Source of the DNA: a virus
IMG/VR virus record: IMGVR_UViG_3300045988_167796
Location: 132,032-171,721 of that record
Strand: one strand, 5' to 3'
DNA length: 39,690 nucleotides
The notes beneath the pieces are model-generated. The model made no database searches and had not been told where the DNA came from. It saw nothing but the letters and a program-made list of their open reading frames with translations. Position numbers and translations under genes: made by a program. Of this stretch, positions 1,667 through 26,123 are shown in pieces. Numbering within the stretch: position 1 is the stretch's first letter; every line of letters begins with the position of its first letter.

Positions 1667-2137
1667 TTAAGCTGCAACTTTCAGCTTTTTATTTTCTACA
1701 GTTACTGTCTTTCCTTCTTCCGGAGTCCCATCGAATCCAACTGCAGACAGCTCGAATACATCACCAGGGCAAAGCTCATAAGCTCTTACAACGTCACCAG
1801 CTGCGTTGTACCAACGAGATTCTTTTTTAAAGCTATTTGTCCATTCCTCTGTGATAAACGGCTGCATATATACATAAAGAGAAGTAACTGGATCAGCTTT
1901 AGTTACCTCTACATACCAATTTCCATTTGCAGCCTGTTTTCTAATAATTCCTTCAAATCCGGATGCTGCAGCTTCTGAATAAAGGTCGAGATCAAGAAAT
2001 TCATCTCTGGCAATAATTGCACCATTATCAGTGTCAGTATCCAGAACAACGTTATAAATATGTCCGCATTCCTGGCTTTTCAGTTTTGATGGCCAACTAA
2101 CGGCATGCGTATCATCGATTACATATTTTGTTGCCAT
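1667..2137 (-). CDS. small head-module protein (possible decoration/accessory protein), 156 aa; start moved to ATG 2137 with AAAGGAG SD
   Basis: ORF between scaffold and MCP genes; upstream track start lacks SD, internal ATG has SD. Confidence 0.5.
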   Translation of the reverse strand: MATKYVIDDTHAVSWPSKLKSQECGHIYNVVLDTDTDNGAIIARDEFLDLDLYSEAAASGFEGIIRKQAANGNWYVEVTKADPVTSLYVYMQPFITEEWTNSFKKESRWYNAAGDVVRAYELCPGDVFELSAVGFDGTPEEGKTVTVENKKLKVAA

Positions 2138-2164
2138 AACTTTTTCTCCTTTCATAAAAATTTG

Positions 2165-2195
2165 AGTACAAAAATAAGACCGCATAATGCGATCT
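2165..2195 (-). terminator. hairpin + U-run between scaffold gene and small head gene
   Basis: GATCGCAT-TATGCGGTC imperfect hairpin followed by UUAUUUUUG on minus strand. Confidence 0.4.
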
Positions 2196-2242
2196 TTTAA
2201 AATTGAGTATCTAAATATATTAATTAAAGTTTTTCAACTTAA

Positions 2243-3937
2243 TTACTTTGAAAATAATGAACCATAACGTCTCTTTTTCTGTGTAGTATTAAATGGCAAT
2301 CCTACTTTATTTGTTGCTTTATTTTTCTTTTCTTCTTTTGATATTTCAGAGAAATTAATATTGCCAGATTTAGCACAAGACAAAAGCATAGCATCGAGTT
2401 TTGCATTTAGCTCTTCAAGAGAAAATTCTTCATGATTCTTTGATAATTCAATAAAATCTTCTTTTTCAGAAATTGCTTTATAATCATTAGAGATAAATAA
2501 AGCGTCTTTCTTTTCTGCTTCTTCAGCTTTCTGATACGTTTCTAACTGAGATTTTACTTCAGAATAGTTAGAACGAAGCTCTGCAAGAGAGTCTTCTTCG
2601 TCTTTTGTAAGCCAATTAGCAAAGACTTCAACTCTGTCACCAATGAGAGAGAAGTTGTCATCTTCGCGTTTGTATGTCTGTTTGTAATTCTTATCATTCC
2701 ACCAATCACACATGATCACATAAGAATCATATACAGTTACTCCATACCATGTATTATCAGATTCTGAATATGTATCATTCACAAGATTATAAAGAGCAGA
2801 CTGTACATCATTTAATGAAAGCTCAAATTCTCTAACTGTCCCGTCCTCTTCAGTAATAGAACATTTCTTTTTCTTCTTTTTCTTTGTTGATCCTCCACAA
2901 GCTTCATTTTCTTTTACTTCCGGATCGTCTTCTCCATCTGAACCTTCATTATCTTCATGCTTTTCTTCGCCTTCTGATTCTTCATTTTCCTCAGTGAATG
3001 CTTTAGAAAAAGCAGCCTCCAGTTCTTCATCTGATAAACCTTCATATTCAAATGTAATATCTTCTTTTGTTTTATTGTATTTTTCTAAAAGTTCTTCAAA
3101 TTTATTCACCTGTTTATCCTCCTTTCCTTCAGCATTAGAGTTGTTTATATTGAAATTAGATAAAGAGGAAAGAGTACTATCCAATTTCTCTAATGTTTCA
3201 ATTAATTTTCTATCATTCATATTATTGTAATGAGAACAAATTGAGTTATTTTCTGTGCTGAAATCTTTAATATCAAGACGACTTCCTACCATTCCTTCTC
3301 CAATTTGAGTCCCATCTTTTTCTGATCCAAGACCCGTGCATCCGGAAAAATAAAAATCTTCTAATTCAAGATATTTTTCTTTTGCATTGTAAGACATTGT
3401 ATCAATACATAACTCTGCAGATACTTTTGTTCCTTCTTTTCTTCTTATAATATCAGCAGCAAGAGTGTATTCTTCTGGTATTGCAACTTCTGCAATAACA
3501 TATGTCTTATCCATATCTTTATCATATTCTAAATATGGATCATCTGCAGTGAATGTACCGACTTGTGATTCTTTATAAACAATTTGTTCTTCCCCATTTT
3601 CATCAACAACAATTTCCATATCGTGTCCATGAAAATCATATTCCCCAGAATCCAACTGATGAATATAAGCTAAAAATGGCCTATACTTTAAAGACGGCAT
3701 AGCCTTTTTCATATTATCTTCTGAAATATAAGAACCGTTTCTATTAAGCTCTGTATGACATACTTTTACTGTTGCAAATAATAATCCCTGAGTAGTATCA
3801 CTTTCAAAATACAATTCACCAGGGACCTGGACTGAAAGCGTGTATCCTGAATTTTGCGAGTTGAAACTATAAAACTTATTTTCTTCACAGAATTTAGCCA
3901 ATTGTTCTAAAGTTAATAGCTTATGTTTTTTCCTCAT
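2243..3937 (-). CDS. putative scaffolding protein / prohead protease-scaffold fusion, 564 aa
   Basis: Between portal and capsid genes; central highly acidic Glu/Asp-rich tract, K7 run, coiled-coil-like C-terminus; start at ATG 3937 with AAGGAGG SD (track start 3976 has none). Confidence 0.45.
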   Translation of the reverse strand: MRKKHKLLTLEQLAKFCEENKFYSFNSQNSGYTLSVQVPGELYFESDTTQGLLFATVKVCHTELNRNGSYISEDNMKKAMPSLKYRPFLAYIHQLDSGEYDFHGHDMEIVVDENGEEQIVYKESQVGTFTADDPYLEYDKDMDKTYVIAEVAIPEEYTLAADIIRRKEGTKVSAELCIDTMSYNAKEKYLELEDFYFSGCTGLGSEKDGTQIGEGMVGSRLDIKDFSTENNSICSHYNNMNDRKLIETLEKLDSTLSSLSNFNINNSNAEGKEDKQVNKFEELLEKYNKTKEDITFEYEGLSDEELEAAFSKAFTEENEESEGEEKHEDNEGSDGEDDPEVKENEACGGSTKKKKKKKCSITEEDGTVREFELSLNDVQSALYNLVNDTYSESDNTWYGVTVYDSYVIMCDWWNDKNYKQTYKREDDNFSLIGDRVEVFANWLTKDEEDSLAELRSNYSEVKSQLETYQKAEEAEKKDALFISNDYKAISEKEDFIELSKNHEEFSLEELNAKLDAMLLSCAKSGNINFSEISKEEKKNKATNKVGLPFNTTQKKRRYGSLFSK

Positions 3938-5764: not shown

Positions 5765-8700
5765 TTACTCGTCAAACATTGAATGACGTCTTCCTTTTCT
5801 TATGGTAAGCGAAGATACTAAAGATTTATCAGCTTTTGTCCTTCTTTTACCAGTAATATTCTTTCTTCTTTCACATTGTAAAGCATAAGCACTCATAGCA
5901 GCTGTGTAAGCTCTGTCGTCATGCAGTTTATTTTGCTTTTCTGGACATAATTCAAAAGAGTCTTTACCAGATTCTCTTTTAATACGTACCATATTTACAA
6001 GTTCTTCTTTTAGAGCGTCTATACTCCCAAGAGATGCTTCTTCTTGCCAATTTAATTTTTCTGTATGAGTTTTTACATTTTGAAGTTTATCCAATTCTTT
6101 TTGAACTATATCGTTTACTTCCTCATCTGAAAGATTTTGTTTTTTATACTTTTCCGTCAAAGATTCTTTTGTTTTTTCAAATTTATCTTTATCTATATCA
6201 AATATAGTTAAATATCCTTTTCCATCATAATTAGCAGTGAAACTTATTTTATCCTGATTCATAAGTTCTATCATTGCTTCATACATAATAGATTTATACT
6301 GAGTAGGAGACATAAGATGAATTTTATTTACTGCATTTGGGAACTTTTTCACATATTCTTCAGAATATTCTTTATCGATTAGACCTCTATGCATTTTACC
6401 ATCTTTACCTTTCCAATCAGGCATTAAATAATCGGCAATATTAACACCGCCACCACCAGAACCAGCGTCAATATAAATTCCAAGTATATTGCTATACGTT
6501 TCGTCCCCGCCTTGATTATAGTCAAGAATAACATCTTTTAAATAATCAATCTGATCCGGTGTTTGCATTGGAGTTTTTCGCTTATTACTAATATCAATAA
6601 GATTTATACAATTCAGTAATCTCATCTTATATTCAAGATCACCATCTTTATTTATTTCTGGATATACTTCTGAAACTAATATTACAGAATTATCTCTGGA
6701 TCTTGCCGGGTCATAAGCTATTACAATTTTACGGTCCCCAGTATCATTATATAGAATTGGTTTTCTAACTTCTTCGTTACGAGCTATTACACCTCTACGT
6801 ATGATAGCATTAGCACCTGCATCAGAAGTAAACTCACAATAGTATTCACGCCTTGCTTTTTCAGGATTACTTCTCATTGCCGCTTCAACAGTACTTTTAG
6901 ACAAAAGCGGTTCCATTACTTCGCCACGTATAGTTGGTTTAAATGCTACTTCACAGTCAATATGAGCAACAAAATAATCGGGATCACCCATTAATTGACG
7001 TTTACTAAAATCGCGATATAATTTATAAAACTCTGTATCAGTAGAAGAAGCAGAAGATATATAGAATAATTGATTTGGGATATTTGATGGAATACATCTT
7101 AGACGATTTCGATCGATAGACTTACCGTCACGATCTTTACCAGATTTAAAACTTTTATTTACGATTGCAAACGCTGCATATACAGACATCATTTCTTCAT
7201 CAAGGAAACCACATTCATCAAATACAACAGAACCACGTTTTCCCCTTTTTTTATCTATATTACTATTAAGAGTTTGCGTAAACGAGCCATTATATAAAGA
7301 ATATGAGAACCCATTAGAAGAGTGACTGAACCCATCTCCTGCAGCATTCTTTATCTCTACTTCAGCTTTAAAAATATAACCTGTAGAACCAAGCATTGTG
7401 TCAATATTATCATTTGCTAAACGCTCAAGTGTGGTAAATGTTTCTTCTGCCTGAGATCCAGAACCAGATGCTATATATGTCCAATAATTACTAAACAGCA
7501 TGTCTTTAGCCATTATCATAATATCAATTATAGTGCTATTATGCGTTACTGTATTTTTATTTCCACATAAAAATAGATGGCTTTCGCCATCTACTGATAT
7601 ACATTTTGTAGGTCTTGTTTCAACTTTTTCTATACATATGATTTGTTTTTTTATACTTGTCTTTGGATATTTATCTTTTAGTCTATCGTATTTTCTTTTT
7701 AACATAAAACAAGGATATTCTTTACTAGGAGTAAAGAAAAATCTTTTTGCCAAAAAAGTTTTTCCATTACATTTTCGTTCATATTCTTTACTTGTAAATT
7801 TAATTCCTAACGATGATAATAATGAATAAAATCCATTATATATTTGGTCTTTATCTATACTTTGAGTGAATTCAGCATGTCCTTGTTTGCTAACAGTTCC
7901 ATCTGTATCCATCAATCCACACAATAAATCCAATCGTTGTTCTACAGATGAAAAAATATAATCATTTGGTATATGTTTATTATTTAAAAGATTATTCTTT
8001 CTTAATAATGTTGTTAACGGTATATTGTCATTGTTATGTATAACAATTCTTTTATTATTTCTACTATCATTATTAATACTATGAATAATATACCCTCTTT
8101 TTTTTATTAATGAACACATCTCTTCGCAATCATCTATATGAGTAGTAATATAACCCATTTCAGAACAACCATCTCCTAACCACAATCCTAAAATATAAGG
8201 ATCAATAGGAAGTTCTTTTTCAGAATACTGAATTGGATCCGTCATAGGTACTGAATAACGCACTTCATTATAATCTTTATCCCATTTTTCAGAATACGTT
8301 TTACGTTTTGGAATTTTATATTTTTCATATAAAGTTTTAGTATCAATATCAATTAATTTATTTGGATTCCTTTGCCATCTATCAAATACACTCCAAATAT
8401 GATCTGCGTCAGCTATTATTTCTTCATTATCAGAAAATACTATTTTATAACAATCGTGATTTTGAAATATAGGAGATATATTATTAACTTTTACAGGACA
8501 TCCTTGTTCGTTATAAACATAATCACCAACATGAATATCTTTTATGCATTTATCTCCGTTTGGAGTAGGTATCCTGGTGTTTAAATCTAATGCCTTACCG
8601 AACCCACGCGTACAAACCAATAAAACATTTGGACAATTCCACGATCTCTGAATCACCCATGCTTGTGCATCAAGTAATTCTATATTAAAAAAATCATTTA

Positions 8701-8881
8701 TAAATCTTACGGGATTACATTGATAATATTTTTGTAGATTTGCAATTTTTATAAGACCTTCCAATTTTCTGGAAGATAGAGCATAAGATCCTGGCTTTAC
8801 ATAAATGGTATTATTCTGCACGCATTGATTTTCAAATGTCTCAGTGTACATGTCATGAATTATTTCTCTTTTATTTATCAT
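5765..8881 (-). CDS. terminase large subunit (TerL) precursor containing an intein; 1038 aa precursor, ~686 aa after splicing
   Basis: Walker A reconstituted as TRGFGK|ST across the intein, Walker B VVFDECGF downstream; start ATG overlaps stop of upstream gene (ATGA). Confidence 0.85.
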   Translation of the reverse strand: MINKREIIHDMYTETFENQCVQNNTIYVKPGSYALSSRKLEGLIKIANLQKYYQCNPVRFINDFFNIELLDAQAWVIQRSWNCPNVLLVCTRGFGKALDLNTRIPTPNGDKCIKDIHVGDYVYNEQGCPVKVNNISPIFQNHDCYKIVFSDNEEIIADADHIWSVFDRWQRNPNKLIDIDTKTLYEKYKIPKRKTYSEKWDKDYNEVRYSVPMTDPIQYSEKELPIDPYILGLWLGDGCSEMGYITTHIDDCEEMCSLIKKRGYIIHSINNDSRNNKRIVIHNNDNIPLTTLLRKNNLLNNKHIPNDYIFSSVEQRLDLLCGLMDTDGTVSKQGHAEFTQSIDKDQIYNGFYSLLSSLGIKFTSKEYERKCNGKTFLAKRFFFTPSKEYPCFMLKRKYDRLKDKYPKTSIKKQIICIEKVETRPTKCISVDGESHLFLCGNKNTVTHNSTIIDIMIMAKDMLFSNYWTYIASGSGSQAEETFTTLERLANDNIDTMLGSTGYIFKAEVEIKNAAGDGFSHSSNGFSYSLYNGSFTQTLNSNIDKKRGKRGSVVFDECGFLDEEMMSVYAAFAIVNKSFKSGKDRDGKSIDRNRLRCIPSNIPNQLFYISSASSTDTEFYKLYRDFSKRQLMGDPDYFVAHIDCEVAFKPTIRGEVMEPLLSKSTVEAAMRSNPEKARREYYCEFTSDAGANAIIRRGVIARNEEVRKPILYNDTGDRKIVIAYDPARSRDNSVILVSEVYPEINKDGDLEYKMRLLNCINLIDISNKRKTPMQTPDQIDYLKDVILDYNQGGDETYSNILGIYIDAGSGGGGVNIADYLMPDWKGKDGKMHRGLIDKEYSEEYVKKFPNAVNKIHLMSPTQYKSIMYEAMIELMNQDKISFTANYDGKGYLTIFDIDKDKFEKTKESLTEKYKKQNLSDEEVNDIVQKELDKLQNVKTHTEKLNWQEEASLGSIDALKEELVNMVRIKRESGKDSFELCPEKQNKLHDDRAYTAAMSAYALQCERRKNITGKRRTKADKSLVSSLTIRKGRRHSMFDE
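7538..8593 (-). mobile_element. intein (352 aa) with LAGLIDADG homing endonuclease inserted in TerL P-loop
   Basis: N-terminal block A ALDLNTRI (Ala1 instead of Cys/Ser), two LAGLIDADG motifs (ILGLWLGDG, LLCGLMDTDG), C-terminal ..TVTHN followed by Ser+1; excision restores GFGKST. Confidence 0.8.
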
Positions 8882-10179
8882 GTTTTGCCACCGCCATCTT
8901 CGTATTCCTGTTCTATATTTTCGTCTACCTCATTTTCTTCATCGCTAAAACAAGAGAATAAATCGTTAAGATCTACGAGATTTTCATGATTAAGCATATT
9001 ATGTTCTTCAAGAAAATCCTTTAAATCAATATTCTCACGCAATAATATTCTGGATATTTCTTTATAGTTATCCAGATCTTTGCGCAAATCTACAACTGTT
9101 TCTCTCATTTCCGCAAGCATATCAGAATATTCAGATTCATCTAGTCGTAATTGTTTTAATATAGAAGCGTTGCTCATATCCATAACTTGTTGCATTCCTC
9201 TGCATGTTCCTATATCAAAACCATTTACTTCGCCTTCACGAAGATTCATATCTTTAATCTTCTTGATTTTTCCCGTCCACGTATTTTCCCCTTTCTTAGC
9301 ATTTTTATTATTTTTAAGAGATATACAGCTTTCGGCGGCAAGATCTTTTATCATAGAAGTACATTGCTTTTTACTATCTTGTAAAGACTTTATAGTACCG
9401 GAATTTTTCTGCAGATTTGCAGAATCTGACATATATTTAACAAGACTATCGTCAATTTTTGAATTTTGTAAGAAACCTCTCACAATAGAAATAGCAGAAG
9501 CAGTACGGACCATATCGTCATTTCCTTCTTCGCTTGAATCTAATATACCCAATAATTGCGAATATAATAAAGGTTGATCAGAAATTGCTTCTTTTTCAAA
9601 TGGATCGTAACTAAGCAAACGAATTACATCTTTTTTATTTTTTAAATAATCTGAATATGTATCTTGATCTTCGCGGCCTACCGCAATATTTTCCGGAGTT
9701 TTTTCATCATCATATATTATTTTCTCTTTAAACATATCAGAATCCTGATACGTAAGCCCTACATATTGTCCCATAGCAATATTTTTGATATAACTTGTCC
9801 ATGGATTATACTTTATCCTTCCAGACACAAGATTTTCAGACTCTTGTACGCTTGCATCCCATACTCTGTTAAGAAATGGCTTATTTAAGTATTTTAATGC
9901 TAATTGTACTGATTCCTTTGTAGGTTCGTGCTCATCACCATTTTTATCTACTCGCAAAGCAATCTTTCGTGCGCATTCTTTACAAATAGGTGTTAATTCA
10001 GATTTACACATTGGATCTGTACTTAAATAAAATTTATCTTTGCTTTTTATTGTGTCGCACATATGACACCACGCAGAACTTTTTAATTTATCAATTTCTT
10101 GCTCTAAAGTTTCTATTTTCTTTTTCATTTGAGTCGGAGTTATTTTTACCGGCTCTGTATTTTTCTTTGCAGTTGCCAC
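8878..10179 (-). CDS. hypothetical protein, 433 aa, Cys-rich N-terminus and acidic coiled-coil C-terminus; possible small-terminase/DNA-binding partner
   Basis: GTG start after AAGGAGG; stop overlaps TerL start (translational coupling); C-x2-C clusters. Confidence 0.7.
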   Translation of the reverse strand: MATAKKNTEPVKITPTQMKKKIETLEQEIDKLKSSAWCHMCDTIKSKDKFYLSTDPMCKSELTPICKECARKIALRVDKNGDEHEPTKESVQLALKYLNKPFLNRVWDASVQESENLVSGRIKYNPWTSYIKNIAMGQYVGLTYQDSDMFKEKIIYDDEKTPENIAVGREDQDTYSDYLKNKKDVIRLLSYDPFEKEAISDQPLLYSQLLGILDSSEEGNDDMVRTASAISIVRGFLQNSKIDDSLVKYMSDSANLQKNSGTIKSLQDSKKQCTSMIKDLAAESCISLKNNKNAKKGENTWTGKIKKIKDMNLREGEVNGFDIGTCRGMQQVMDMSNASILKQLRLDESEYSDMLAEMRETVVDLRKDLDNYKEISRILLRENIDLKDFLEEHNMLNHENLVDLNDLFSCFSDEENEVDENIEQEYEDGGGKT

Positions 10180-10202: not shown

Positions 10203-10275
10203 AGCCCCTGATAGGAGTTGAACCTACAGCCTTCTCATTACAAGTGAGTTGCGCTGCCAATTGCGCCACAGGGGC
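10203..10275 (-). tRNA. tRNA-Thr (anticodon UGU)
   Basis: Manual cloverleaf: acceptor GCCCCTG/CAGGGGC, D GCGC/GCGC, anticodon loop CUUGUAA, T-loop TTCAACT. Confidence 0.8.
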
Positions 10276-10279
10276 GTAA

Positions 10280-10352
10280 CTGATCCTGTTGGACTCGAAC
10301 CAACGACACTGCGGTTAACAGCCGCATGCTCTACCGACTGAGCTAAGGACCA
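10280..10352 (-). tRNA. tRNA-Asn (anticodon GUU)
   Basis: Manual cloverleaf: acceptor TGGTCCT/AGGATCA (one GU), D GCTC/GAGC, anticodon loop CUGUUAA, T-arm GTTGG-TTCGAGT-CCAAC. Confidence 0.75.
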
Positions 10353-10380
10353 AGAAAAATAGGAGAGCAGAATGCTCTCC
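10353..10380 (-). terminator. rho-independent terminator upstream (5') of tRNA pair
   Basis: GGAGAGCA-gaa-TGCTCTCC hairpin followed by UAUUUUUCU on minus strand. Confidence 0.55.
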
Positions 10381-12261: not shown

Positions 12262-12873
12262 TTACAAAATATAATCTAAATCACAATCTTTTCCAATAAT
12301 TTTTTCAATACATCCTCTTTCTTTTGCTTCGTCAGCATACATATAGTATTCCTGATCATAAATTTTATCATAAAATTCTTCAGTCATATTTGTCCTTGAA
12401 AGAACATAAGATTTTGTTCTTTCTTCCATGCTATCAAAAAATCGCATAGTGTCTTTGGCTTTACTTGTGGAATTCGATATATGTATATTTCCATCATGCT
12501 GCAAAAGAATAGAATTATAAAATGCAATTCTTTCATGACAAGCAAGTAAAATATGATATCCCATAGATGCTGCAAGTCCAAAACAAACACCTTTAATCGG
12601 AGTTTTAGAAGCAGTAATAGCATCTACAAAATTAAATCCATCTATACAATTTCCGCCTGGTGAATTAATATAAATAGTAATCGTCTGTCTTTTCTCTACT
12701 GGCAGATCTTGATCTTCTTTATTCCATTTAAGAATGTATAAAATATAATTATCTAAAACACATTCATCAACAGAATCATTAAAAACCAAAATTCTTTTAT
12801 CTAAATTTTCTCTAAGTAATTCAGTATACATATCATCTGTATTACCATTTAATAATGTCATAATATCCGGCAT
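12262..12873 (-). CDS. ClpP-family (S14-like) serine protease, 203 aa
   Basis: INSPGG and GLAASMG(Y) catalytic-Ser motifs with downstream His in ClpP order. Confidence 0.75.
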   Translation of the reverse strand: MPDIMTLLNGNTDDMYTELLRENLDKRILVFNDSVDECVLDNYILYILKWNKEDQDLPVEKRQTITIYINSPGGNCIDGFNFVDAITASKTPIKGVCFGLAASMGYHILLACHERIAFYNSILLQHDGNIHISNSTSKAKDTMRFFDSMEERTKSYVLSRTNMTEEFYDKIYDQEYYMYADEAKERGCIEKIIGKDCDLDYIL

Positions 12874-12905: not shown

Positions 12906-14354
12906 TTATAATCGTATAAACATATCCTTTGTTGCTGCGATAACCTTAAATGATTTATCCTCTTTAGAAATTGCATCTTCTAAATCATCTTTTAATGAAT
13001 TTTTAGCAACAACAGATCCATGAACTAAAATCAGTTTTTCTGTATTAATTTTAGATCCATATGTAATTAAATCTTTTCTGTTAGCATGGCTTGAAAAAGT
13101 AGTTAGTGATATGCAGTCTGCATTATTTTCCACTTTATCACCGCTAATTTTAATAATTTTATTATCTTTGTAGTTTTTTATTCTATATGACAAATAAGAA
13201 TTATCCGCTCCTGTATATCCAGTAAAAATAACCATGCTATTTTCATCAGATAGATATTCATGCAGATAACTTAAAACTCTACCATTTGTGCAAAATCCAG
13301 AGCTGCTTAATACTATTTTAGGTTCATGAGACTTTACACACATAAGAGATTCTTCTTTATCCCTAATAAACTTGACGTTTTTCCATTCTGTTACATTTTT
13401 CCATAATAATAAATCATCGTCATTAAGAATCTGTTCATATAAATCACATATATCACAAGATAATATTGAATCAACAATAACATCATATTTAAAATCTGTA
13501 TTGTTATATATTTCATATAAACTTGTAAGCAACTCTTGTGTCCGGCTAAAACTAAAACAAGGCAATATAACAGTACCGTTTCTTTCAATAACAGTATTAA
13601 TTGCAGTTTTTAAATGCTCTAAATCAAACTTTCTTGTTTTTTTATTTTGCCTTGAAGGTTCACCGTATGTTGATTCCATAATTGTGATTTTATTAAAAGA
13701 TTCAGGAATTTCAGTATCAATAAGATAATGATTATCTGTATTTAACGATCCCATATCAGAAGTATATAGAATAGAATTAGAAATACAATTTTGATTTTTT
13801 AGAATTAAACGTAATTGTCTTGCTCCAACACAATGGCTATTATTAAACCATTCAAATGAAACAACTTCATCAAGATTATATATCGTATGTAACCCATCAA
13901 AAATATAAATATACTTCAATGTATTTAAAACATCTTCTTCGGAATAAATAGGAATATAATCTCTTTTATACTTATGCGACAATATATATGCTTCACTGTT
14001 TAAAATATAAGCAGAATTTAAAAGTAAAGGTTTCATCATTAAAGCAGTGGCAGAAGATGTAATGATCTGACCATGAAACCCTTCTTTAACAAGCCTTGGT
14101 AACAAACCTATGTGATCAACATGACAATGCCCAACAAACACATAATCAATATCACATGGCTTAAATTTGAATTTTTGAGAATTTATATTATAAGATTCTA
14201 AATAATTGTTATTCTGATAAAGCCCGCACTCTAATAGTATTTGTTTACCGTTATATTTTATATAAGTACAGCTACCAGTAACATCATTTGCATTTTGACC
14301 TACAAAATAAATTCCATCATTTTTAAAAATTTTCTTTGCTATTTTAGACACCAA
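12906..14354 (-). CDS. metallo-beta-lactamase fold beta-CASP nuclease (RNase J/CPSF73-like), 482 aa
   Basis: VTGS and HCHVDH (HxHxDH) N-terminal motifs; C-terminal SSHA and VHG (His at motif C, RNA-type). Confidence 0.75.
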   Translation of the reverse strand: MVSKIAKKIFKNDGIYFVGQNANDVTGSCTYIKYNGKQILLECGLYQNNNYLESYNINSQKFKFKPCDIDYVFVGHCHVDHIGLLPRLVKEGFHGQIITSSATALMMKPLLLNSAYILNSEAYILSHKYKRDYIPIYSEEDVLNTLKYIYIFDGLHTIYNLDEVVSFEWFNNSHCVGARQLRLILKNQNCISNSILYTSDMGSLNTDNHYLIDTEIPESFNKITIMESTYGEPSRQNKKTRKFDLEHLKTAINTVIERNGTVILPCFSFSRTQELLTSLYEIYNNTDFKYDVIVDSILSCDICDLYEQILNDDDLLLWKNVTEWKNVKFIRDKEESLMCVKSHEPKIVLSSSGFCTNGRVLSYLHEYLSDENSMVIFTGYTGADNSYLSYRIKNYKDNKIIKISGDKVENNADCISLTTFSSHANRKDLITYGSKINTEKLILVHGSVVAKNSLKDDLEDAISKEDKSFKVIAATKDMFIRL

Positions 14355-14568: not shown

Positions 14569-14615
14569 TAAAATATCCTCATTTCATAATATATTTCTCC
14601 TGAATGGGAGAGTAG

Positions 14616-14697
14616 TTGGCCAGGTTGGACTCGAACCAACGATGTTTCTTTGTGGGGCATTTACAGTGCCTTGCCTTCGCCACTGGGCCACTGACCA
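14616..14697 (-). tRNA. tRNA-Tyr-like (anticodon GUA), 82 nt, atypical unstructured 14-nt variable region
   Basis: Acceptor TGGTCAG/CTGGCCA (one GU), D-stem GCC/GGC, anticodon loop CUGUAAA, canonical T-arm GTTGG-TTCGAGT-CCAAC; variable region CACAAAGAAACATC lacks a stem. Confidence 0.55.
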
Positions 14698-14708
14698 ATA
14701 TGATATCA

Positions 14709-15287
14709 TCATGATACATTTTTGTATTGCTTTATATAATCATCATAATACATCCATGTTAAACTTTCTTTTGTTTCAGGATGCTTACCAGCTGTTTTTC
14801 TTTTATCTTTTCTGCAGCCCAAATAATCTGATAAAGTTCCTCTATTGCATCCGCACCAGACAGCTGCACATTTAATGCTATCAAATATTATATTATTATT
14901 TAAACATATAACTTTTCTTTTACTGTGATCATTATTTATTAAATTAGTTTTTATTACATGCAACGTATTTTCTCTATATGTTACCCATTCTAAATTTTCA
15001 ACATTATTATTCAATTTATTTCCATCTATATGATTAACAACTGGATAATTATCAATATTATCTATAAATGTTTCTGCTACTGCCTTATGTACTTTAAAAG
15101 TAATTTTGTTATCTCTTGACCCTAAAGAACAAGCAACAAAATAATACCCTTCATGATTTACATTCTTTTTTCTTATTTTTCCTGTTTTTACACCTTTTAT
15201 TTCTCCTGTATTACTTACAAGATATAAATCTCCGTAATCTTTACCTTGGTATATTAATCTTTTCCATATTATTTTATCTTCTACCAT
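14709..15287 (-). CDS. HNH homing endonuclease, 192 aa
   Basis: VNHIDGNKLNNNVENLEWVTYRENT HNH core; free-standing between tRNA genes as typical for phage HEGs. Confidence 0.8.
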   Translation of the reverse strand: MVEDKIIWKRLIYQGKDYGDLYLVSNTGEIKGVKTGKIRKKNVNHEGYYFVACSLGSRDNKITFKVHKAVAETFIDNIDNYPVVNHIDGNKLNNNVENLEWVTYRENTLHVIKTNLINNDHSKRKVICLNNNIIFDSIKCAAVWCGCNRGTLSDYLGCRKDKRKTAGKHPETKESLTWMYYDDYIKQYKNVS

Positions 15288-15305
15288 TTACACCTCTAAT
15301 AATTT

Positions 15306-15392
15306 TATACATAAACGACAGGTGTGGGCTACGACCCCACGAATCATAAAATGATTACTGATTTTCAAGACCAGCGCAATAAACCAACTCTG
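15306..15392 (-). tRNA. tRNA-Ser (anticodon UGA), class II with long variable arm
   Basis: Acceptor GACAGGT/ACCTGTC, anticodon arm CTGGT-CUUGAAA-ATCAG, variable hairpin AATCAT-TTT-ATGATT; T-loop GTCGTAG noncanonical. Confidence 0.7.
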
Positions 15393-15430
15393 CCAACCTG
15401 TCATATTATTATGATACTTCTATAAAATAA

Positions 15431-15513
15431 CGCAGAGCAGTGTATTCGAAACACATACCTTTCGGTACACACTACTTAGCAGGTAGGTTCCATGCCTTAT
15501 GAGTTTACTCTGC
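15431..15513 (-). tRNA. tRNA-Ser (anticodon GCU), class II
   Basis: Acceptor GCAGAGT/GCTCTGC, anticodon loop CUGCUAA, variable TACC-gaaa-GGTA, canonical T-loop TTCGAAT; D-arm poorly paired. Confidence 0.6.
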
Positions 15514-15518
15514 AAAAA

Positions 15519-15590
15519 AGCACTATGTGAGAATTGAACTCACATCTCCGGTTTGGAAGACCAGCGTCATATCCATTAAACCAATAGTAC
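15519..15590 (-). tRNA. tRNA-Gly (anticodon UCC)
   Basis: Acceptor GTACTAT/ATAGTGC, anticodon arm CTGGT-CUUCCAA-ACCGG, T-arm GTGAG-TTCAATT-CTCAC. Confidence 0.7.
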
Positions 15591-15594
15591 ATTT

Positions 15595-15668
15595 TGGGAG
15601 CGGGGATGGGATTCGAACCCATAACTACAACTTATGAGGATGTCGAGCTTCCATTGCTCTACCCCGCT
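15595..15668 (-). tRNA. tRNA with anticodon CAU (elongator Met or Ile-lysidine type), CCA encoded
   Basis: Acceptor AGCGGGG/CCCCGCT with 1-72 paired (not initiator-like), D GAGC/GCTC, anticodon loop CUCAUAA, T-arm ATGGG-TTCGAAT-CCCAT, 3' CCA present in DNA. Confidence 0.7.
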
Positions 15669-15681
15669 ATAATATTAATAA

Positions 15682-15754
15682 TGCAAGTGAAGAGGTTCGA
15701 ACTCTTGACTTACCGGTTAAAAGCCGGTTACTCTACCAACTGAGTTACACTTGC
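15682..15754 (-). tRNA. tRNA-Lys (anticodon UUU)
   Basis: Acceptor GCAAGTG/CACTTGC, D ACTC/GAGT, anticodon arm ACCGG-CUUUUAA-CCGGT, T-arm AAGAG-TTCGAAC-CTCTT. Confidence 0.8.
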
Positions 15755-17417: not shown

Positions 17418-20285
17418 TTATTCAGATGTTTGAAAAGCGTCACTTTTTTTATTACGATATTTTGATTGCCTTAATTTATGTAAATAATCCTTATGTATTT
17501 CCGAGCATCTATCACATCGTTTACTTCTCATATTTGTTGATTGAACATTAAAAACACATCCGCAATCTACGCATACCATTGATTTTTTTCCGTTTAATTT
17601 ATTTACTTCTTTTCCCCTACAAGATCTACATTTACCTCTATATAAAACCTCATCCGTTCTCTTTCCGCATTTTCTACATATATTTTTATAATCAACATTT
17701 TCACACAAATTATTGTATATTTGTTCTCCATATATGTACCATAATAGCTTCTTTTTCCTCGTAGATGGTTTTTTATATAAAAATGATACAAGCGAATTAA
17801 TTACTTTATCATCGTTTGGTTCTATTTTATTTAGATCAGATTTTACCTGCATACATACAGCATTTATATTGTTCTTATCCTTATTATCGTCTTCATCAAG
17901 TTTTATATTGTTACCATATTTCTTATTCCATCTGTCAAACACAGCGTTTACTTCATCATTATAATAGAAGTCATTTTTATCCTTTAAGAACAATTTATAA
18001 TCAACTTTATCAAGTCTTTTTATGTTTTTAAACTGTTTCTTATTATCTTTTATTTCGTTTACTATTTTATTAATAGTACTATCGTTTATAGGTTCAACCT
18101 GTTCTAACGATTTATCTTTTGCGTAATAAAAGAAATACGGGACCTTCTGATTACTATATCTTTTCAGAATCTGATCTACGTGTTGAGGTCTAGTAGGTTT
18201 AAATAACGTTTTTGCATAATCTATAGTAAAATTAGTTTCCATGCATAACCATCTTACTGCATTTAATGATTCCTGCGTAATGTTACCACTGTTCCATATC
18301 TTTGTAATATCGTTACTAATACCACCAATACGACCTCCAGTAAATGCTAATTTAAGACCTTTGAAGATGTTTTCACAGGTAATCATCTCTGCATTTGCCT
18401 TTTTCATCTCATAATACAAAGGATTAACACCTTGCATACATCTCTCAGCAATGTTAATAAGCTTTTCTTGTGCTAAAACAAGCAGCCTGTCTCCATCTAC
18501 ATCAAACTGTAATATTCTACTTATAGGATCATGAACACTTGTATATATAGCATCTGTTGTAAACCATTCATCTAATCTTGTGCACCTAAACTTCTTATTA
18601 CAAACATTTTTTCTAACCGCATGTTCAATATATAAATGAGGGGATCTCAGACAATCAAGTTTTTCTTTATTCTTATATAACCTACAAAATACTTCACCAT
18701 TTGCAAGAAGTCCTATTGGAGATTCTACTCCCATAAATAAACGCTCACAAAATGCATATAGATCAGGTACAACAAAAGTAAATTTGCCAGTAACGTCTAA
18801 CTTCGCACTTCTGTATTTTTTTATCATGCTATTTTTTAAATCCCTAAGATCTGCTTTGCTTGCCGGATCGTTTAATAGCTCTGGATATATTTTTAATGAT
18901 TTCTGGAACCAATCTTTTTTACTTTCGTCATCATCGTCTAAATCAACACCAAAAAAATCAAGAGCATTTTCCAAACTATCACTTATAGTTTCTATTTTCT
19001 TATTTGCAAATTTACACATATCTGAAATTTCTTTATCAGTTGCATCATATAATGTTTGAAGCATTTGATAGTTGATTTTTGCATTTGAAATAGAATCTTC
19101 TTCTATATTGCATATACCTGCTTCGCAATTATATTTCTTAAAATAATACTTATATTCATCCCAGCTGTCATAATACTTGTACATTTTTAACTGAGATTTA
19201 GTGAATATAACTTGAATATCATCATCAAAAATATCGTATTCTTTTCCCCATATATCCCGAATTTTTGACGAGCAGTTATATGTTTTTATAAACTTTTTAT
19301 AATCAAAACTTCCTAATAATCCTTTAATAAACGGCATACGCACCATGAAGTTCTTTTTACTTAACGATGGAAGAATCATACCGGATCCATCTGTATGTGT
19401 AATCGGTATATCCATGACTACATCAGGAGTTATTTCATAAGATTTATAATCAATATTATCAACCTTACAATTTACCATTGTCTCAAAATCATCTACTACA
19501 ATACTTCTATCTATATCAAATGGAACTCCAAGAACATCTTCCCATAAATCAGTAGCAGAGTTTGCAAGAGCAAGATAAGCCAGGAATTTGTTAATATTCA
19601 TTCCGCCTTTTTCATTTATTTTATCTACAGTAAGACCACACATAAGTTTTAATTTACAACTCTCATATTTTTCTTCCTCTACAAATACAGCTTTTTTTGT
19701 TCTTATTTGTCCTGCAGAAGAGGAGAAGTATACGTAATGCTTATTGTTATAATTAAATCCGTCTAAAATTAGATTTTCAGCTATATCATAGTAAAATATT
19801 TCAAGGACAAAAATACCGTATGTAAGCTCATTTGTTTTTATATCAAAGCTTCTGCTTAATGTGGATTCAAACATTGCAATAACATTTGAAATATTTATTT
19901 TTCTATCGCCGTCTTCTTGGTCAACATAAGAAAGATATCTTTCGTCCAAACACCTTATTATTTTATCTTTATGTGTTTTGTTATATTCAAGTATATTTTT
20001 CGAGTTATCAGAGATATATTTTTTCCATCTTTCTTCTTCTGATTTTATTTCTTTATCAAACCACAAAAAATATTCTTCATATTTACTTAATATACATCCA
20101 TCTTTTTTTTCACGTTTTAATTTTGAAACAGTTTTAGTAATGCTTTCTTTATAATGTAATTTCGTATCATATATTTTTTTGTGTATTTTTTTTAATCTTA
20201 TTAATCGTTTTCTTTCATTTTTTTCTTCCTTTGTTAAAAACGCGCTAGTGTCAACCTTGAATAAACTAATTTGTCTATCTAGCAT
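17418..20285 (-). CDS. large 955-aa protein with DxDGD motif (QFDVDGDRL) and C-terminal multi-Cys zinc cluster; candidate YonO-like single-subunit two-barrel RNA polymerase (alternative: primase-polymerase)
   Basis: Uninterrupted 955-codon ORF with SD; DxDGD is the catalytic signature of two-double-psi-beta-barrel RNAPs; function unverified. Confidence 0.3.
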   Translation of the reverse strand: MLDRQISLFKVDTSAFLTKEEKNERKRLIRLKKIHKKIYDTKLHYKESITKTVSKLKREKKDGCILSKYEEYFLWFDKEIKSEEERWKKYISDNSKNILEYNKTHKDKIIRCLDERYLSYVDQEDGDRKINISNVIAMFESTLSRSFDIKTNELTYGIFVLEIFYYDIAENLILDGFNYNNKHYVYFSSSAGQIRTKKAVFVEEEKYESCKLKLMCGLTVDKINEKGGMNINKFLAYLALANSATDLWEDVLGVPFDIDRSIVVDDFETMVNCKVDNIDYKSYEITPDVVMDIPITHTDGSGMILPSLSKKNFMVRMPFIKGLLGSFDYKKFIKTYNCSSKIRDIWGKEYDIFDDDIQVIFTKSQLKMYKYYDSWDEYKYYFKKYNCEAGICNIEEDSISNAKINYQMLQTLYDATDKEISDMCKFANKKIETISDSLENALDFFGVDLDDDDESKKDWFQKSLKIYPELLNDPASKADLRDLKNSMIKKYRSAKLDVTGKFTFVVPDLYAFCERLFMGVESPIGLLANGEVFCRLYKNKEKLDCLRSPHLYIEHAVRKNVCNKKFRCTRLDEWFTTDAIYTSVHDPISRILQFDVDGDRLLVLAQEKLINIAERCMQGVNPLYYEMKKANAEMITCENIFKGLKLAFTGGRIGGISNDITKIWNSGNITQESLNAVRWLCMETNFTIDYAKTLFKPTRPQHVDQILKRYSNQKVPYFFYYAKDKSLEQVEPINDSTINKIVNEIKDNKKQFKNIKRLDKVDYKLFLKDKNDFYYNDEVNAVFDRWNKKYGNNIKLDEDDNKDKNNINAVCMQVKSDLNKIEPNDDKVINSLVSFLYKKPSTRKKKLLWYIYGEQIYNNLCENVDYKNICRKCGKRTDEVLYRGKCRSCRGKEVNKLNGKKSMVCVDCGCVFNVQSTNMRSKRCDRCSEIHKDYLHKLRQSKYRNKKSDAFQTSE

Positions 20286-20296
20286 ATATACCTCCG

Positions 20297-21130
20297 TTAT
20301 TTTTTAATCCATAAATCAGTATTAAATAGATAATCTAATGAATCTATATCTTCTAATCTCTTACAACATGCAGTGCTATAATTTCCAATATATTCATAAT
20401 AACCAGACCATCCGTTTTTAGTACTGTACGAGTAATATCGAAAATCCACATTTTCACTTTTAATTCTCATCATATTATTCTTGTTTTTATCATATCTATG
20501 TTTTTTATAATACATAAATTTTTTATTTTTAATTTTATTGATTGACCATTTATGATTAATGGTCATGAGCATTTCTAAATTACAATCATAATATAATAAG
20601 TTTTCAATCTTCTCTATCGTATTAAATCTCTTTATATTTCCTTCTTTGTTTCCTGAATAATATTCTTGAAAATAATTCTTTGCTCCAAGTATCCATATAT
20701 CTTTTATTCCAGCTGCATTATAAAGATCATGTCTTTCAAAATACTCAGATGCTATAGGAGTACATTGATATTCAATTACGTATTGTTCGGAATCATATTT
20801 AAACATAATGTCAGGACGCTGTTTCGTTCCTGGTATCCATCCTTCAAGAACAACATCATATGTTCCTGGCATATTTTTTATCCAATGAAACAAATCTTGT
20901 TTTCCTTTTAAATGTTCTTGCGTTTCTGATTCTATATATTTAGCTTCGCACATATTTTTGTCTTTATGTCTAAAATACGGCATTTTGATTTGACCATGAC
21001 AGTATTCATATGATTTCCCACATACAGGACATTTTAATATCCCTTTTTTGGACCACGACTTTAATTGGTCCTTGCTGTATATTCCATCTATACAATTAAT
21101 AATTTTGTTATTTAGTACACTTGTTAACAA
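20297..21130 (-). CDS. CoiA-like competence-family nuclease, 277 aa (TTG start)
   Basis: N-terminal CPVCG...H-x-YFRH zinc-finger signature of CoiA family followed by nuclease-like core; AAGGTGA SD. Confidence 0.6.
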   Translation of the reverse strand: MLTSVLNNKIINCIDGIYSKDQLKSWSKKGILKCPVCGKSYEYCHGQIKMPYFRHKDKNMCEAKYIESETQEHLKGKQDLFHWIKNMPGTYDVVLEGWIPGTKQRPDIMFKYDSEQYVIEYQCTPIASEYFERHDLYNAAGIKDIWILGAKNYFQEYYSGNKEGNIKRFNTIEKIENLLYYDCNLEMLMTINHKWSINKIKNKKFMYYKKHRYDKNKNNMMRIKSENVDFRYYSYSTKNGWSGYYEYIGNYSTACCKRLEDIDSLDYLFNTDLWIKK

Positions 21131-21156: not shown

Positions 21157-23010
21157 TTAGAAAGTGCCGACTGAAGTATAAGGAGCACATACACGTTCAA
21201 CTAATAATGATACGTCAGATGATCCATCAAATGTTGAACTATAATTAGCCGTACATGTTGAAGAATAATTTTGTCTATTTTGCAATCTTTCCGACAGTCT
21301 GCTTAAAGTATCATGTGTAGCATTTCCTGCGCTAACAGCAGAAATTGATTCAATTTCAGTAGCAGTCACAGTTCTTTCTCTAGTCCCAGCATTATCAAGA
21401 CCTCTACCTAAGTCAAAACCTACATAATCAGGTAAAGTACGACTATAGAAATTTGACAATTCTTCTAATCTTTGAATATCCCGTCTAGACATAGACGCAT
21501 TTTCATTATCTTCTTTATTCTTCTTTTTCCTTTTATACTTAGCCAACTCTTTTTGAGCATCATTTAACTCAGACTGCAGGCGCTTCTTTTCCATAAAATT
21601 TGAACAATGATTTAACTTCTTTTTTAAATAAGAAATATTGTCTTTTATCTTTTGAATTTCATCATCAACTTTTTGATCGTTTTCTTTTTTGTTTTTCTTA
21701 TTTAATCTCGTATTGTAATATTTACGTAACTCAATAGAAAATGTACTCATTATATCTTCCCATTGAATACATTCGATTTTTTCAATATTAATAGATTTAG
21801 CAAAATCAATAATGTCTTTTACAAATTCAAAAGTAAGAAGAAGTGTTTCTGGTTTTAATGTACTTTTAAACATACGAAATTCAATCGTATCTCTATGAGC
21901 AAGATTTAATGCAACTCTTTTACCTATACTTTTATAACGTCCGTATAATTCAACTACTGAGTCCTCTAACTTACCTTTGCCTACAAATTGACTATAGTCA
22001 TTATTTCTTCTTGCAATAACACAAATTTGATCATTAAATTTCTCGATAATATATAGTATCTTAGAAATTGTTAATTGCTGCAGAAGAGTAGTCTTTCCAA
22101 GATAGCTTCTGTTTGCATGGATATGTAATCCGGCACAGTCGCAATCGTGTCCTTTATATCCAAGACTATCAAGATACCTAAACATCTCTTTGTAATTCAT
22201 TTTATTTTTATGAAATTCTAAACTACAAGGCATTGTATCTAATTCTATTTGAACAGTACCATCATGCGTACTATAGATTAAATCTTCTTCATCAGAATCA
22301 GATCCGTTCATAATCTGAATACATTTTTTTACAACTTCTTCTCGATTTTTCTCATGTTTATTCCCGGCAATTTCAATTTCGGCACCAAGTAGAAGAGCGG
22401 TATTTTCACTCTCATATGGCATATAGTGAGGAATATATACTGGAGTATAATTAAATTGATGAATGTATTTTTTTTGTGGTTTACTTTCAAATGTAATCTC
22501 ACGTGTGAAGTCAATATTCCTTGCGTTTATAAATTCCGTGCGTGTTGAACTACTACAATAATATGATTGATTTGTAATACTTTCATAGTCTGCGATAGTT
22601 ATTCTATTTTGATTTAATAATATACGTGCATCAAAATGTATATTATCACAATTATATCTTTCACAATTATCACATTGTTCTTTAATTTTTGATATATATT
22701 CATCGTAATTGCTATATGGTATTTCTTTTACAGACCCGTTATAATCTTCGTACAAATTATTGTATTGAAAAATATAAGAATTTAAGGATCTATTAAATTT
22801 ATCTATCAATAGCTCTTCTTTTATAACAAAATTTTCACTATCAATGTTTGTAATTTTTAATACTTTTTTTTCACTTGTATTATTATTCATAAAGTTAAAA
22901 CAGCACATTACAGTTCTAGAACACTTTTTTATTAATTTTCCATTTATTGTATACGGTGGCTGCATACTTAAAACAACACTTTCCACCATTATATCTGGTA
23001 ATAATCTCAT
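21157..23010 (-). CDS. hypothetical protein, 617 aa; weak resemblance to GS-like amidoligase motifs; coiled-coil Lys-rich C-terminal third
   Basis: Motif series GAEIEI, THDGT..ELDT, GLHIHAN, R..EFR in the order seen in Amidoligase_2-type enzymes; unverified. Confidence 0.25.
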   Translation of the reverse strand: MRLLPDIMVESVVLSMQPPYTINGKLIKKCSRTVMCCFNFMNNNTSEKKVLKITNIDSENFVIKEELLIDKFNRSLNSYIFQYNNLYEDYNGSVKEIPYSNYDEYISKIKEQCDNCERYNCDNIHFDARILLNQNRITIADYESITNQSYYCSSSTRTEFINARNIDFTREITFESKPQKKYIHQFNYTPVYIPHYMPYESENTALLLGAEIEIAGNKHEKNREEVVKKCIQIMNGSDSDEEDLIYSTHDGTVQIELDTMPCSLEFHKNKMNYKEMFRYLDSLGYKGHDCDCAGLHIHANRSYLGKTTLLQQLTISKILYIIEKFNDQICVIARRNNDYSQFVGKGKLEDSVVELYGRYKSIGKRVALNLAHRDTIEFRMFKSTLKPETLLLTFEFVKDIIDFAKSINIEKIECIQWEDIMSTFSIELRKYYNTRLNKKNKKENDQKVDDEIQKIKDNISYLKKKLNHCSNFMEKKRLQSELNDAQKELAKYKRKKKNKEDNENASMSRRDIQRLEELSNFYSRTLPDYVGFDLGRGLDNAGTRERTVTATEIESISAVSAGNATHDTLSRLSERLQNRQNYSSTCTANYSSTFDGSSDVSLLVERVCAPYTSVGTF

Positions 23011-25220: not shown

Positions 25221-26123
25221 TTATCTCCTTGCTTCGTACATTTCTTTAATAAGCTCTTTTACATCAGATTCAAATAGCTTGACTGCTAATTCATATAGTT
25301 CTGGGATCATTCCAAGTACTTTATCTACATAATCAAGTTTGTTTTTAAGTTTTGGACTATGATTACGGTTATAGCTTTCAAATCTTAAAGTAAGATTAAT
25401 ATGAAACTTATTTTCAAACTCCCTGTACAGAACACCCCATCTGTTTTCGAATTTACCGCCGTTATGACGCATTACTCTATTTAGAATCATTCTCTGATCA
25501 GCTACAGAGATTTCATCTGTGAATTTTTGAATGATATCCTGTTTATAATCCAAATCTGATTTCTGTTTAGTAATCGTATCCTGCTGTGTCCGGATCAATG
25601 TATTCTGCTCCTGGATTGTATGTAATGTAGTTCTAAATAAGATTTTCGTAGATTCATCTGCAAAAGGAAGATAAGTATTGATAAATACATCTTCATTATG
25701 TACATAGCCGCCTGTCTTACGGATCGTAGGAAGTACTTCTGCAGTTACCCAGTGTTTGAACTTCTTGGCGGAGGGGAGTTTGCTGCTGAAGATCAGTGAG
25801 TAAAGACCAGATTCGTTGATCCATGTAGGAAATTGTTTTCTTCCAATGCTGTCTGTAATAGATGGGGTAGCGTTTGGCGACCCCATAATTTTGTCACATT
25901 CTTCAACATGATTAGTAATAGCGTCTTTTGTATTCTTAAATCCTAACGCTTCTGCTACATCTTTCCCAACAAACCAAGGTTCATTATCTATGGTGAGGAC
26001 TCTTACTGATCCGAACTCAGGATTGGTGAAGATTGATGGAGTTGATGTGGTAGTGTTATTTGTATTAGTATTTGTAGTTGTGTTTGTAGATTCTTTCTTA
26101 TTATTTGTGTTTCTTTTCTTCAT
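25221..26123 (-). CDS. phage antirepressor, Bro-N domain + KilA-C/ORF6C-like C-terminal domain, 300 aa
   Basis: FGSVRVLTIDNEPWFVGKDVAEALGF..HVEE motif block of Bro-N; Thr/Asn-rich low-complexity N-terminus. Confidence 0.75.
   Translation of the reverse strand: MKKRNTNNKKESTNTTTNTNTNNTTTSTPSIFTNPEFGSVRVLTIDNEPWFVGKDVAEALGFKNTKDAITNHVEECDKIMGSPNATPSITDSIGRKQFPTWINESGLYSLIFSSKLPSAKKFKHWVTAEVLPTIRKTGGYVHNEDVFINTYLPFADESTKILFRTTLHTIQEQNTLIRTQQDTITKQKSDLDYKQDIIQKFTDEISVADQRMILNRVMRHNGGKFENRWGVLYREFENKFHINLTLRFESYNRNHSPKLKNKLDYVDKVLGMIPELYELAVKLFESDVKELIKEMYEARR

Follow-up and report, generated by a model that had tools for sequence, protein, structure and literature searches.

In the 39,690-nucleotide (nt) stretch of viral DNA analysed here (positions 132,032 to 171,721 of record IMGVR_UViG_3300045988_167796; hereafter the window), the gene that we assign to the large terminase subunit (TerL), the packaging ATPase, carries an in-frame insert of 352 residues between the Lys of its Walker A motif (P-loop) and the Ser that follows. 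With a probability of about 85%, we read this insert as a mobile class-3 intein with a two-motif LAGLIDADG homing endonuclease, residing in an SPbeta-like phage or prophage of gut Clostridia. The parts of the gene are as follows, all on the minus strand.

5765..8881 (-), TerL precursor open reading frame (ORF), 1038 residues plus stop, 119.6 kDa; from the ORF list, phrog_2 and the hhalign match to the TerL of Bacillus phage Stills
8594..8881 (-), N-extein, residues 1-96, ending with the first half of Walker A, CTRGFGK at 8594-8614
7538..8593 (-), class-3 intein (predicted), Ala1 to Asn352, 352 residues, 41.1 kDa; residues 97-448 of the ORF
8219..8593 (-), N-terminal HINT half, intein residues about 1-125, limits approximate, from the secondary structure of an AlphaFold2 (AF2) model
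start of the intein, within the N-terminal HINT half (-), block A ALDLNTRIPTPNG; intein residues 1-69 align with residues 1-69 of structure 6bs8
8450-8452 (-), Cys48, in the N-terminal HINT half
8387-8419 (-), block B IIADADHIWSV; His65 at 8399-8401, Trp67 at 8393-8395
7694..8218 (-), LAGLIDADG homing-endonuclease domain, intein residues about 126-300; Pfam Hom_end and LAGLIDADG_3
8165-8191 (-), LAGLIDADG motif 1, LGLWLGDGC
7895-7927 (-), LAGLIDADG motif 2, LLCGLMDTDGT
7538..7693 (-), C-terminal HINT half, intein residues 301-352; aligns with VRCVEVD...PTHN of 6bs8
7565-7612 (-), block F PTKCISVDGESHLFLC; Cys331 at 7601-7603
7538-7558 (-), block G KNTVTHN; Thr350 at 7544-7546, His351 at 7541-7543, Asn352 at 7538-7540
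5768..7537 (-), C-extein, residues 449-1038; Ser+1-Thr at 7532-7537 form the second half of Walker A
7214-7228 (-), Walker B VVFDE, in the C-extein

The insert and its host gene

Translation of the minus strand revealed that residues 97-448 of the ORF, encoded by 7538-8593, start with ALDLNTRIPTPNG, end with NTVTHN and are followed by Ser449-Thr450. Deletion of this segment in silico joined ...LLVCTRGFGK to STIIDIMIMAK..., which places the insertion point between Lys96 and Ser449 of Walker A (TRGFGK/ST; here and below a slash within a sequence marks a junction), and by computation the precursor weighs 119.6 kDa, spliced TerL 78.5 kDa and the intein 41.1 kDa. An earlier note on this DNA, made from the letters alone, had proposed that the TerL ORF is about 350 residues too long, that the extra segment holds two LAGLIDADG motifs and ends in THN before a Ser+1, and that its removal rebuilds the P-loop. 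Translation and the alignment of homologues bore out these proposals, with a 352-residue insert at exactly 7538-8593, both motifs (LGLWLGDGC and LLCGLMDTDGT) inside it, and NTVTHN/ST giving way to a joined TRGFGKST; the products of about 80 and 40 kDa that the note expected agree with the computed masses. Its span for the insert was right and its strand was left unstated, the gene lying on the minus strand. A plus-strand reading of 7538-8593 was dismissed, as its translation is full of stops, and the plus-strand ORFs at 7500-7829 and 8372-8584 that overlap the intein were set aside as antisense shadows of low-complexity sequence.

The nature of the segment as an insertion is established by homologues that lack it. 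A search with the spliced extein against 5.8 billion proteins returned 3050 matches, and the best 120 of these, which we inspected, are 76-89% identical to the extein and nearly all 676-696 residues long, besides some shorter fragments. More than 100 of the 120 measure about 683 residues, and the only long ones are P0111 (1038 residues) and P0112 (1005 residues). Alignment of five intein-free homologues with the precursor, P0111 and P0112 revealed a single gap that corresponds exactly to residues 97-448; the five short proteins have a contiguous TRGFGKST and read TRGFGKSTIIDIM unbroken. The junctions define the limits of the insert unambiguously, since Lys and Asn differ, as do Ala and Ser; alternative splice boundaries were rejected, as only GK/A...N/S recreates the intein-free sequence. 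These homologues also decide against an ordinary, lineage-specific TerL domain, a reading for which the sub-threshold Pfam HINT models described below are the sole support that we found: proteins of about 683 residues are the rule, those aligned lack precisely 352 residues around a contiguous GKST, and inteins in unrelated TerL families are full-length homologues of the segment. We consider that reading refuted, and the earlier claim of an insertion rather than a normal domain holds. A 499-kb Ruminococcus sp. AM36-2AA contig (Oscillospiraceae, Clostridia) encodes one intein-free relative, 85% identical, and the closest genome match is an integrated prophage within that contig, whose intein-less allele is at about 400.7-402.7 kb of QTYB01000001.1. 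A set of 50,697 phage records, searched with the terL gene by megablast, gave no match and hence no close sequenced relative.

General domain libraries were uninformative on the host protein. Scans of the precursor with Pfam and NCBIfam matched no terminase model, a Pfam scan of the intein-free homologue P0001 gave no match, phmmer of the spliced extein against the PDB found no TerL, and an AF2 model of P0001 was unusable (predicted local distance difference test, pLDDT, 39.5) because its alignment, of 22 sequences at least 73% identical, was shallow. The assignment therefore rests on PHROGs and hhalign. The extein matched phrog_2, 'terminase large subunit', with an E value of 1.5e-29, and a profile-sequence hhalign comparison aligned it over 390 columns, at 96.5% probability, with the TerL of Bacillus phage Stills, which itself passes Pfam Terminase_6N. 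In that alignment CTRGFGKST pairs with the Stills Walker A motif SRGSGKSY and VVFDE with Walker B VYVDE, a register that puts the insertion between the Walker A Lys and the next Ser/Thr. Consistent with this, tblastn of the extein found annotated terminases of Bacillus phage Stills, of PBC4 and of SPbeta-like phages, a homologue at 87% identity bears the UniRef name 'Terminase large subunit', a portal gene adjoins terL downstream (phrog_2739, E 7e-86), and neighbouring genes at related loci carry the SPbeta Pfam domains YonJ, YonG and YonD. Taken together, these sequence comparisons support the identification of the host protein as TerL.

Splicing signature, fold and predicted mechanism

The three top matches of the insert in a phmmer search of the PDB were class-3 DnaB inteins, 6bs8 (Msm DnaBi1, E 6.7e-13) and 6rix/6riy (MchDnaB-1), and the next matches to the intein were the gp41-1 intein and PI-SceI. 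Comparison with the class-3 DnaB inteins paired ALDLNT with ALALDT, ADADHIW with ADAQHQW, TKCISVD with VRCVEVD and VTHN with PTHN, and identified the putative catalytic set as Ala1, His65 (B:10), Trp67 (B:12), Cys331 (F:4), Thr350 (G:5), His351-Asn352 and Ser+1. The defining features of class 3 are a residue 1 that is not a nucleophile, the WCT triplet of Trp (B:12), Cys (F:4) and Thr (G:5), and Ser or Thr, rarely Cys, at +1 (Tori et al. 2010; PMC2807308, PMC5222942). The TerL intein has such a residue 1, the full triplet and a fitting +1 residue, together with its affinity to proven class-3 inteins; more generally, it shows what is expected of an intein, namely a precise in-frame insertion, blocks A, B, F and G, a terminal His-Asn, a +1 nucleophile and a HINT fold. 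Judged by the strength of the sequence matches and by the intein-free homologues with their clean gap, the observation is far beyond chance.

We assessed conservation in 96 homologous inteins extracted from a protein search with the intein as query, a set in which all proteins are at most 615 residues long and from which the inteins of P0111 and P0112 (70-88% identity) are missing, so that full-length intein-bearing TerLs are under-sampled. His65, Trp67, Cys331, Thr350 and Asn352 are each present in 96 of the 96, as is the Lys at -1, and His351 in 93. The +1 residue is Ser in 48, Thr in 47 and Cys in one, and residue 1 is Ala in 71, Gly in 9, Met in 5, Gln in 5, Ser in 3, Asp in 2 and another residue in one, never Cys or Thr; the P0150 intein starts with Pro. 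The class-3 (WCT-type) nature that the earlier note suggested is thus supported by the full signature, by the alignment with proven class-3 Msm DnaBi1 and by the invariance of the triplet among the 96 relatives. So are two observations on which it drew: the first residue is Ala and not Cys or Ser in the translation, and blocks B, F and G do pair with those of 6bs8 and of the TerL inteins of phages Kostya and B23.

A rival reading is a real intein that splices by the class-2 (KlbA-type) route, with a direct attack of the +1 nucleophile on the N-terminal junction and a structural role only for Cys331. Ala1 is as found in KlbA inteins, and inteins with a class-3 signature could use either path until Cys F:4 was mutated (PMC5222942). 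However, the +1 residue here is Ser and not Cys, F:4 is Cys and not Asp, the WCT triplet is present here and invariant in the family, and the nearest solved relatives belong to class 3, Msm DnaB-1 having an absolute need for Cys F:4 (PMC5222942, PMC2807308). We rejected the class-2 assignment and hold that route to be highly improbable.

The structural model agrees with an intein of composite build. An AF2 model made from the family alignment reached a pLDDT of 94.1 and a predicted template modelling score (pTM) of 0.92, and Foldseek matched the whole chain best to PI-SceI (E 1.5e-20, TMq 0.70) and also to TliVMA and PI-PfuI; its HINT part matched 6bs8 (TMt 0.88), and further matches were hedgehog Hog and I-OnuI. 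The earlier note had suggested an alignment to intein families as a check. This succeeded with phmmer, tblastn and the fold and failed with the Pfam splicing models.

Three points weigh against a functional class-3 intein. In the Pfam scan of the precursor, Intein_splicing and the Hint/Hint_2 models stayed under threshold, and with NCBIfam and Pfam together the endonuclease models alone rose above it; the intein call rests for this reason on phmmer, tblastn and fold evidence. Position 7 of block B is Asp and not Thr, a position that is dispensable in the prototype class-3 intein (PMC2807308). Finally, the splicing chemistry and the endonuclease activity are inferred, by analogy with characterized relatives.

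On that analogy, terL would be translated as a 120-kDa precursor with its P-loop split into GFGK and ST, from which a packaging-inactive precursor is expected; as for other P-loop inteins (PMC5050341, PMC6195587), it is predicted neither to assemble nor to bind or hydrolyse ATP. Splicing would begin with an attack of Cys331 (F:4) on the Lys96-Ala1 bond, assisted by His65 and Trp67, to give a thioester branch at block F. The N-extein would then move to the side chain of Ser+1, forming a branched ester at block G, after which Asn352 would cyclise with the help of His351 and free the 41-kDa intein. An O-to-N acyl shift would complete the 78.5-kDa TerL, in which the GFGKST loop is whole.

Endonuclease, selection and mobility

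The central part of the intein scored above the gathering cut-offs of Pfam Hom_end (29.5 bits, cut-off 21.1) and LAGLIDADG_3 (24.7 bits, cut-off 22.5). Both motif helices, their acidic residues and the fold of a two-motif LAGLIDADG homing endonuclease were found, and Asp141 of LGDG and Asp231 of DTDG are kept in 91 and 92 of the 96 homologous inteins, respectively. Released from the precursor, this endonuclease would cut intein-less terL within the conserved P-loop codons when phages co-infect a cell or superinfect a lysogen, after which the intein would spread by homing. Intein-less alleles gave a candidate target, with predicted cleavage at or near ...GGGTTCGGTAAG/AGCACTATAATT... and near ...GGxTTCGGxAAA/TCTACTTTGATT...; in the DNA flanking the insertion, the encoded amino acids are conserved and synonymous sites vary between intein-plus and intein-minus alleles.

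Codon alignments with two other intein-bearing alleles, P0111 and P0112 (loci L003 and L004), gave ratios of nonsynonymous to synonymous divergence (dN/dS) for the whole intein of 0.15 against P0111 and 0.10 against P0112, the latter with an unsaturated synonymous divergence (dS) of 0.60. The HINT halves gave ratios of 0.075-0.16 (0.075-0.084 in the N-terminal one), the endonuclease part 0.11-0.20 and the exteins 0.02-0.17. The low values in both parts of the intein suggest that splicing and endonuclease activity are each under purifying selection. They also bear on the idea of a dead intein in a decaying prophage, which would not splice and would leave terL effectively a pseudogene. That idea could draw on the integrated Ruminococcus prophage that is the closest genome match, and on a degenerate class-3-like precedent, the Arth_1007 intein pseudogene of Arthrobacter FB24 (PMC3196547). 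Yet the frame of 1038 codons is uninterrupted, the catalytic residues are all intact, dN/dS is low in intein and exteins alike, and the portal, the protease and other neighbours of terL are undamaged, which makes decay improbable.

Signs of lateral movement came from divergence, composition and distribution. Against P0112 the intein dS of 0.60 is about one-third of the C-extein dS of 1.94 (the N-extein dS being saturated), which fits an intein ancestry shared more recently than that of the host gene. The GC content of the intein is 26.7% versus 31-33% in the exteins, and at third codon positions (GC3) 12.8% versus 18-24%. Among TerL alleles more than 85% identical, the intein is scattered, with a few carriers and more than 100 non-carriers in the best 120 of the 3050 matches. 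On sequence grounds these three features fit a laterally moving element, and they leave present-day homing unproven. An intein that still splices and has lost its endonuclease, and is inherited vertically only, precise deletion being difficult, also has to be considered. Decayed endonucleases are common in inteins, and the dN/dS of this one lies somewhat above that of the N-terminal HINT half. Against this stand the preserved catalytic Asp pair and motif Gly residues, the confident fold, a dN/dS well below 1, the lower dS of the intein relative to the C-extein and the sporadic occurrence among close alleles, and we leave a small but real share of the probability to a defunct endonuclease. For the mobile intein with an active endonuclease that we favour, the preservation of all catalytic and endonuclease residues, together with the existence of close intein-free alleles, would make this locus convenient for studying homing among gut phages.

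The terL exteins are themselves mosaic. Identity to the intein-free P0066 is 95% over residues 701-1038, compared with 62% over residues 1-96 and 74% over residues 449-700, whereas the intein-bearing P0112 shows the opposite trend, with 96% (1-96), 95% (449-700) and 71% (701-1038). The reversal points to a recombination breakpoint near residue 700 of terL. Separately, the ORF of P0112 ends early, and its C-terminal approximately 40 residues diverge completely from all other alleles; the likely cause is a frameshift or an error of assembly in this 3.2-kb metagenomic scaffold.

Known relatives, a possible redox switch and neighbouring genes

In a tblastn search of GenBank phages, the intein matched 757 records, in 734 of which the match is near full length, with E values of about 1e-40 to inteins in annotated terminases. 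The best 40 of the 757 are annotated terminases, some RefSeq copies being labelled 'exonuclease', and the records include 300 of Mycobacterium, 177 of Salmonella and 63 of Vibrio. Mycobacteriophage Kostya gp9 and Synechococcus phage B23 gp267 carry a homologous intein at 35-38% identity that shares the Ala1/W/C/T/HN architecture and has the arrangement ...GK/A...THN/T..., and metagenomic relatives have it at the same site, between GK and Ser or Thr, in TerLs of the Pfam families TerL_ATPase, Terminase_6N and GpA_ATPase. The Kostya intein is homologous to the present one over its full length (35% identity, E about 1e-41), sits at the same point after the Walker A Lys and shares Ala1, HxW, two LAGLIDADG motifs, the Cys and THN. 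It differs in having Thr and not Ser at +1 and about 331 residues rather than 352, and its host TerL is unrelated in sequence to the SPbeta-like/Terminase_6N-like protein of the low-GC Clostridia phage described here.

The first class-3 intein to be characterised came from a phage protein, DnaB of mycobacteriophage Bethlehem (PMC2807308), in agreement with the earlier note. This prototype resembles the TerL intein in its WCT triplet, non-nucleophilic residue 1, Ser/Thr at +1, LAGLIDADG domain and phage ATPase host, and its block B numbering is identical to that of His65 and Trp67; its host is a helicase and not a terminase, its residue 1 is Pro and not Ala, and its mechanism was proven by mutagenesis, whereas ours is inferred. 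The closest solved sequence relatives, 6bs8 (M. smegmatis DnaBi1) and 6rix (M. chimaera DnaB-1), align in Ala1, Cys48, His, Trp, Cys F:4 and THN, but are mini-inteins without an endonuclease in bacterial DnaB. PI-SceI, the yeast VMA1 intein and best whole-model fold match, likewise joins a splicing part to a two-motif endonuclease; unlike the TerL intein, it belongs to class 1 (Cys1, Cys+1), lies in a eukaryotic V-ATPase and shows a sequence identity of 16-17%.

The novelty implied in the earlier note was overrated. The presence of class-3 inteins in the P-loops of terminases has been on record since 2010, with surveys in 2016 and 2025, and the class-3 mechanism and its link with the terminase P-loop are published (PMC2807308, PMC5222942). 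Kelley et al. 2016 placed site TerL1-a between the invariant Lys and the nucleophilic Thr of the P-loop (K/T; PMC5050341) and reported that five TerL inteins at other sites (b, c, e, f and g) splice, two of them with active endonucleases (PMC5050341). In actinobacteriophages, a 2025 survey counted 287 class-3 inteins, and almost all that bear canonical LAGLIDADG endonucleases lie in TerL and Cas4. The element type, mechanism class, preference for ATPase P-loops and abundance in TerL were thus known, and current understanding is unchanged. What is new is the host lineage: the window provides an apparently intact example of a class-3 terminase P-loop intein from poorly studied SPbeta-like phages or prophages of gut Ruminococcus-type Clostridia and, possibly, a source of a low-GC class-3 intein for protein engineering.

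A further parallel concerns Cys48, which aligns with Cys48 of Msm DnaBi1. In the latter, this residue is needed for splicing and, under oxidative stress, forms a reversible disulfide with the block F Cys that traps the precursor (PMC6195587), and redox control through such a pair, Cys48-Cys118, was shown for Msm DnaBi1 only (PMC6195587). Cys48 is found in 75 of the 96 inteins of the TerL P-loop family, far above what the label 'non-conserved' used in PMC6195587 would suggest; Cys343 (HLFLCG), at whose position Msm DnaBi1 has Ala, is found in 55. By analogy, splicing of the TerL intein may be gated by a Cys48-Cys331 disulfide in a phage of strictly anaerobic gut Clostridia, an idea that we consider unlikely. 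If it were true, the disulfide would keep the packaging ATPase inactive in an oxidised host cell, and the intein would be a post-translational switch on virion assembly and not purely selfish. The Cys48/Cys331 pair makes the TerL intein a system in which to ask whether packaging is redox-dependent.

Several relatives with the P-loop intein have a second interruption in terL, at which the terL of the window is itself uninterrupted. In locus L006 (5001-9385; logan SRR25572004_732) and in P0122, P0123, P0124 and P0126, the ORF stops a few codons past ...NSNVDRKRGK, just upstream of Walker B. In L006, the first part of terL is followed by a 319-residue LAGLIDADG_3 ORF (6702-7661) and then by a 251-nt stretch that folds better than 200 of 200 shuffles (z -3.1), beyond which TerL continues from LKRGNVIFDECGF (7910-9385). 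An Rfam scan of this interrupted terL matched no group I intron model; the gene is probably split either by a group I intron that carries a homing endonuclease of its own or by a free-standing endonuclease. L006 ends in a GIY-YIG/NUMOD gene. At the intein-free P0066 locus (L005, from a pig gut metagenome), an extra 396-residue gene with a weak DUF5889 match (1818-3008) lies between a YonG-like gene and terL, and a 50-residue GIY-YIG fragment (6946-7098) lies downstream; both are hints of other mobile endonuclease traffic around the packaging module.

Other genes of the window include two large ORFs, at 17418-20285 and 21157-23010, whose sole matches are PHROGs of unknown function, and the features listed here. 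ARAGORN found seven tRNA genes in the window, six of which are confirmed by Rfam.

12262-12873 (-), head-maturation (ClpP-like) protease
12906-14354 (-), beta-CASP/metallo-beta-lactamase nuclease
20297-21130 (-), CoiA-like nuclease
25221-26123 (-), Ant-type anti-repressor
10203-10353 (-), tRNA cluster Thr-TGT, Asn-GTT (ARAGORN)
14615-15754 (-), tRNA cluster Tyr-GTA, Ser-TGA, Gly-TCC, Met-CAT, Lys-TTT (ARAGORN)

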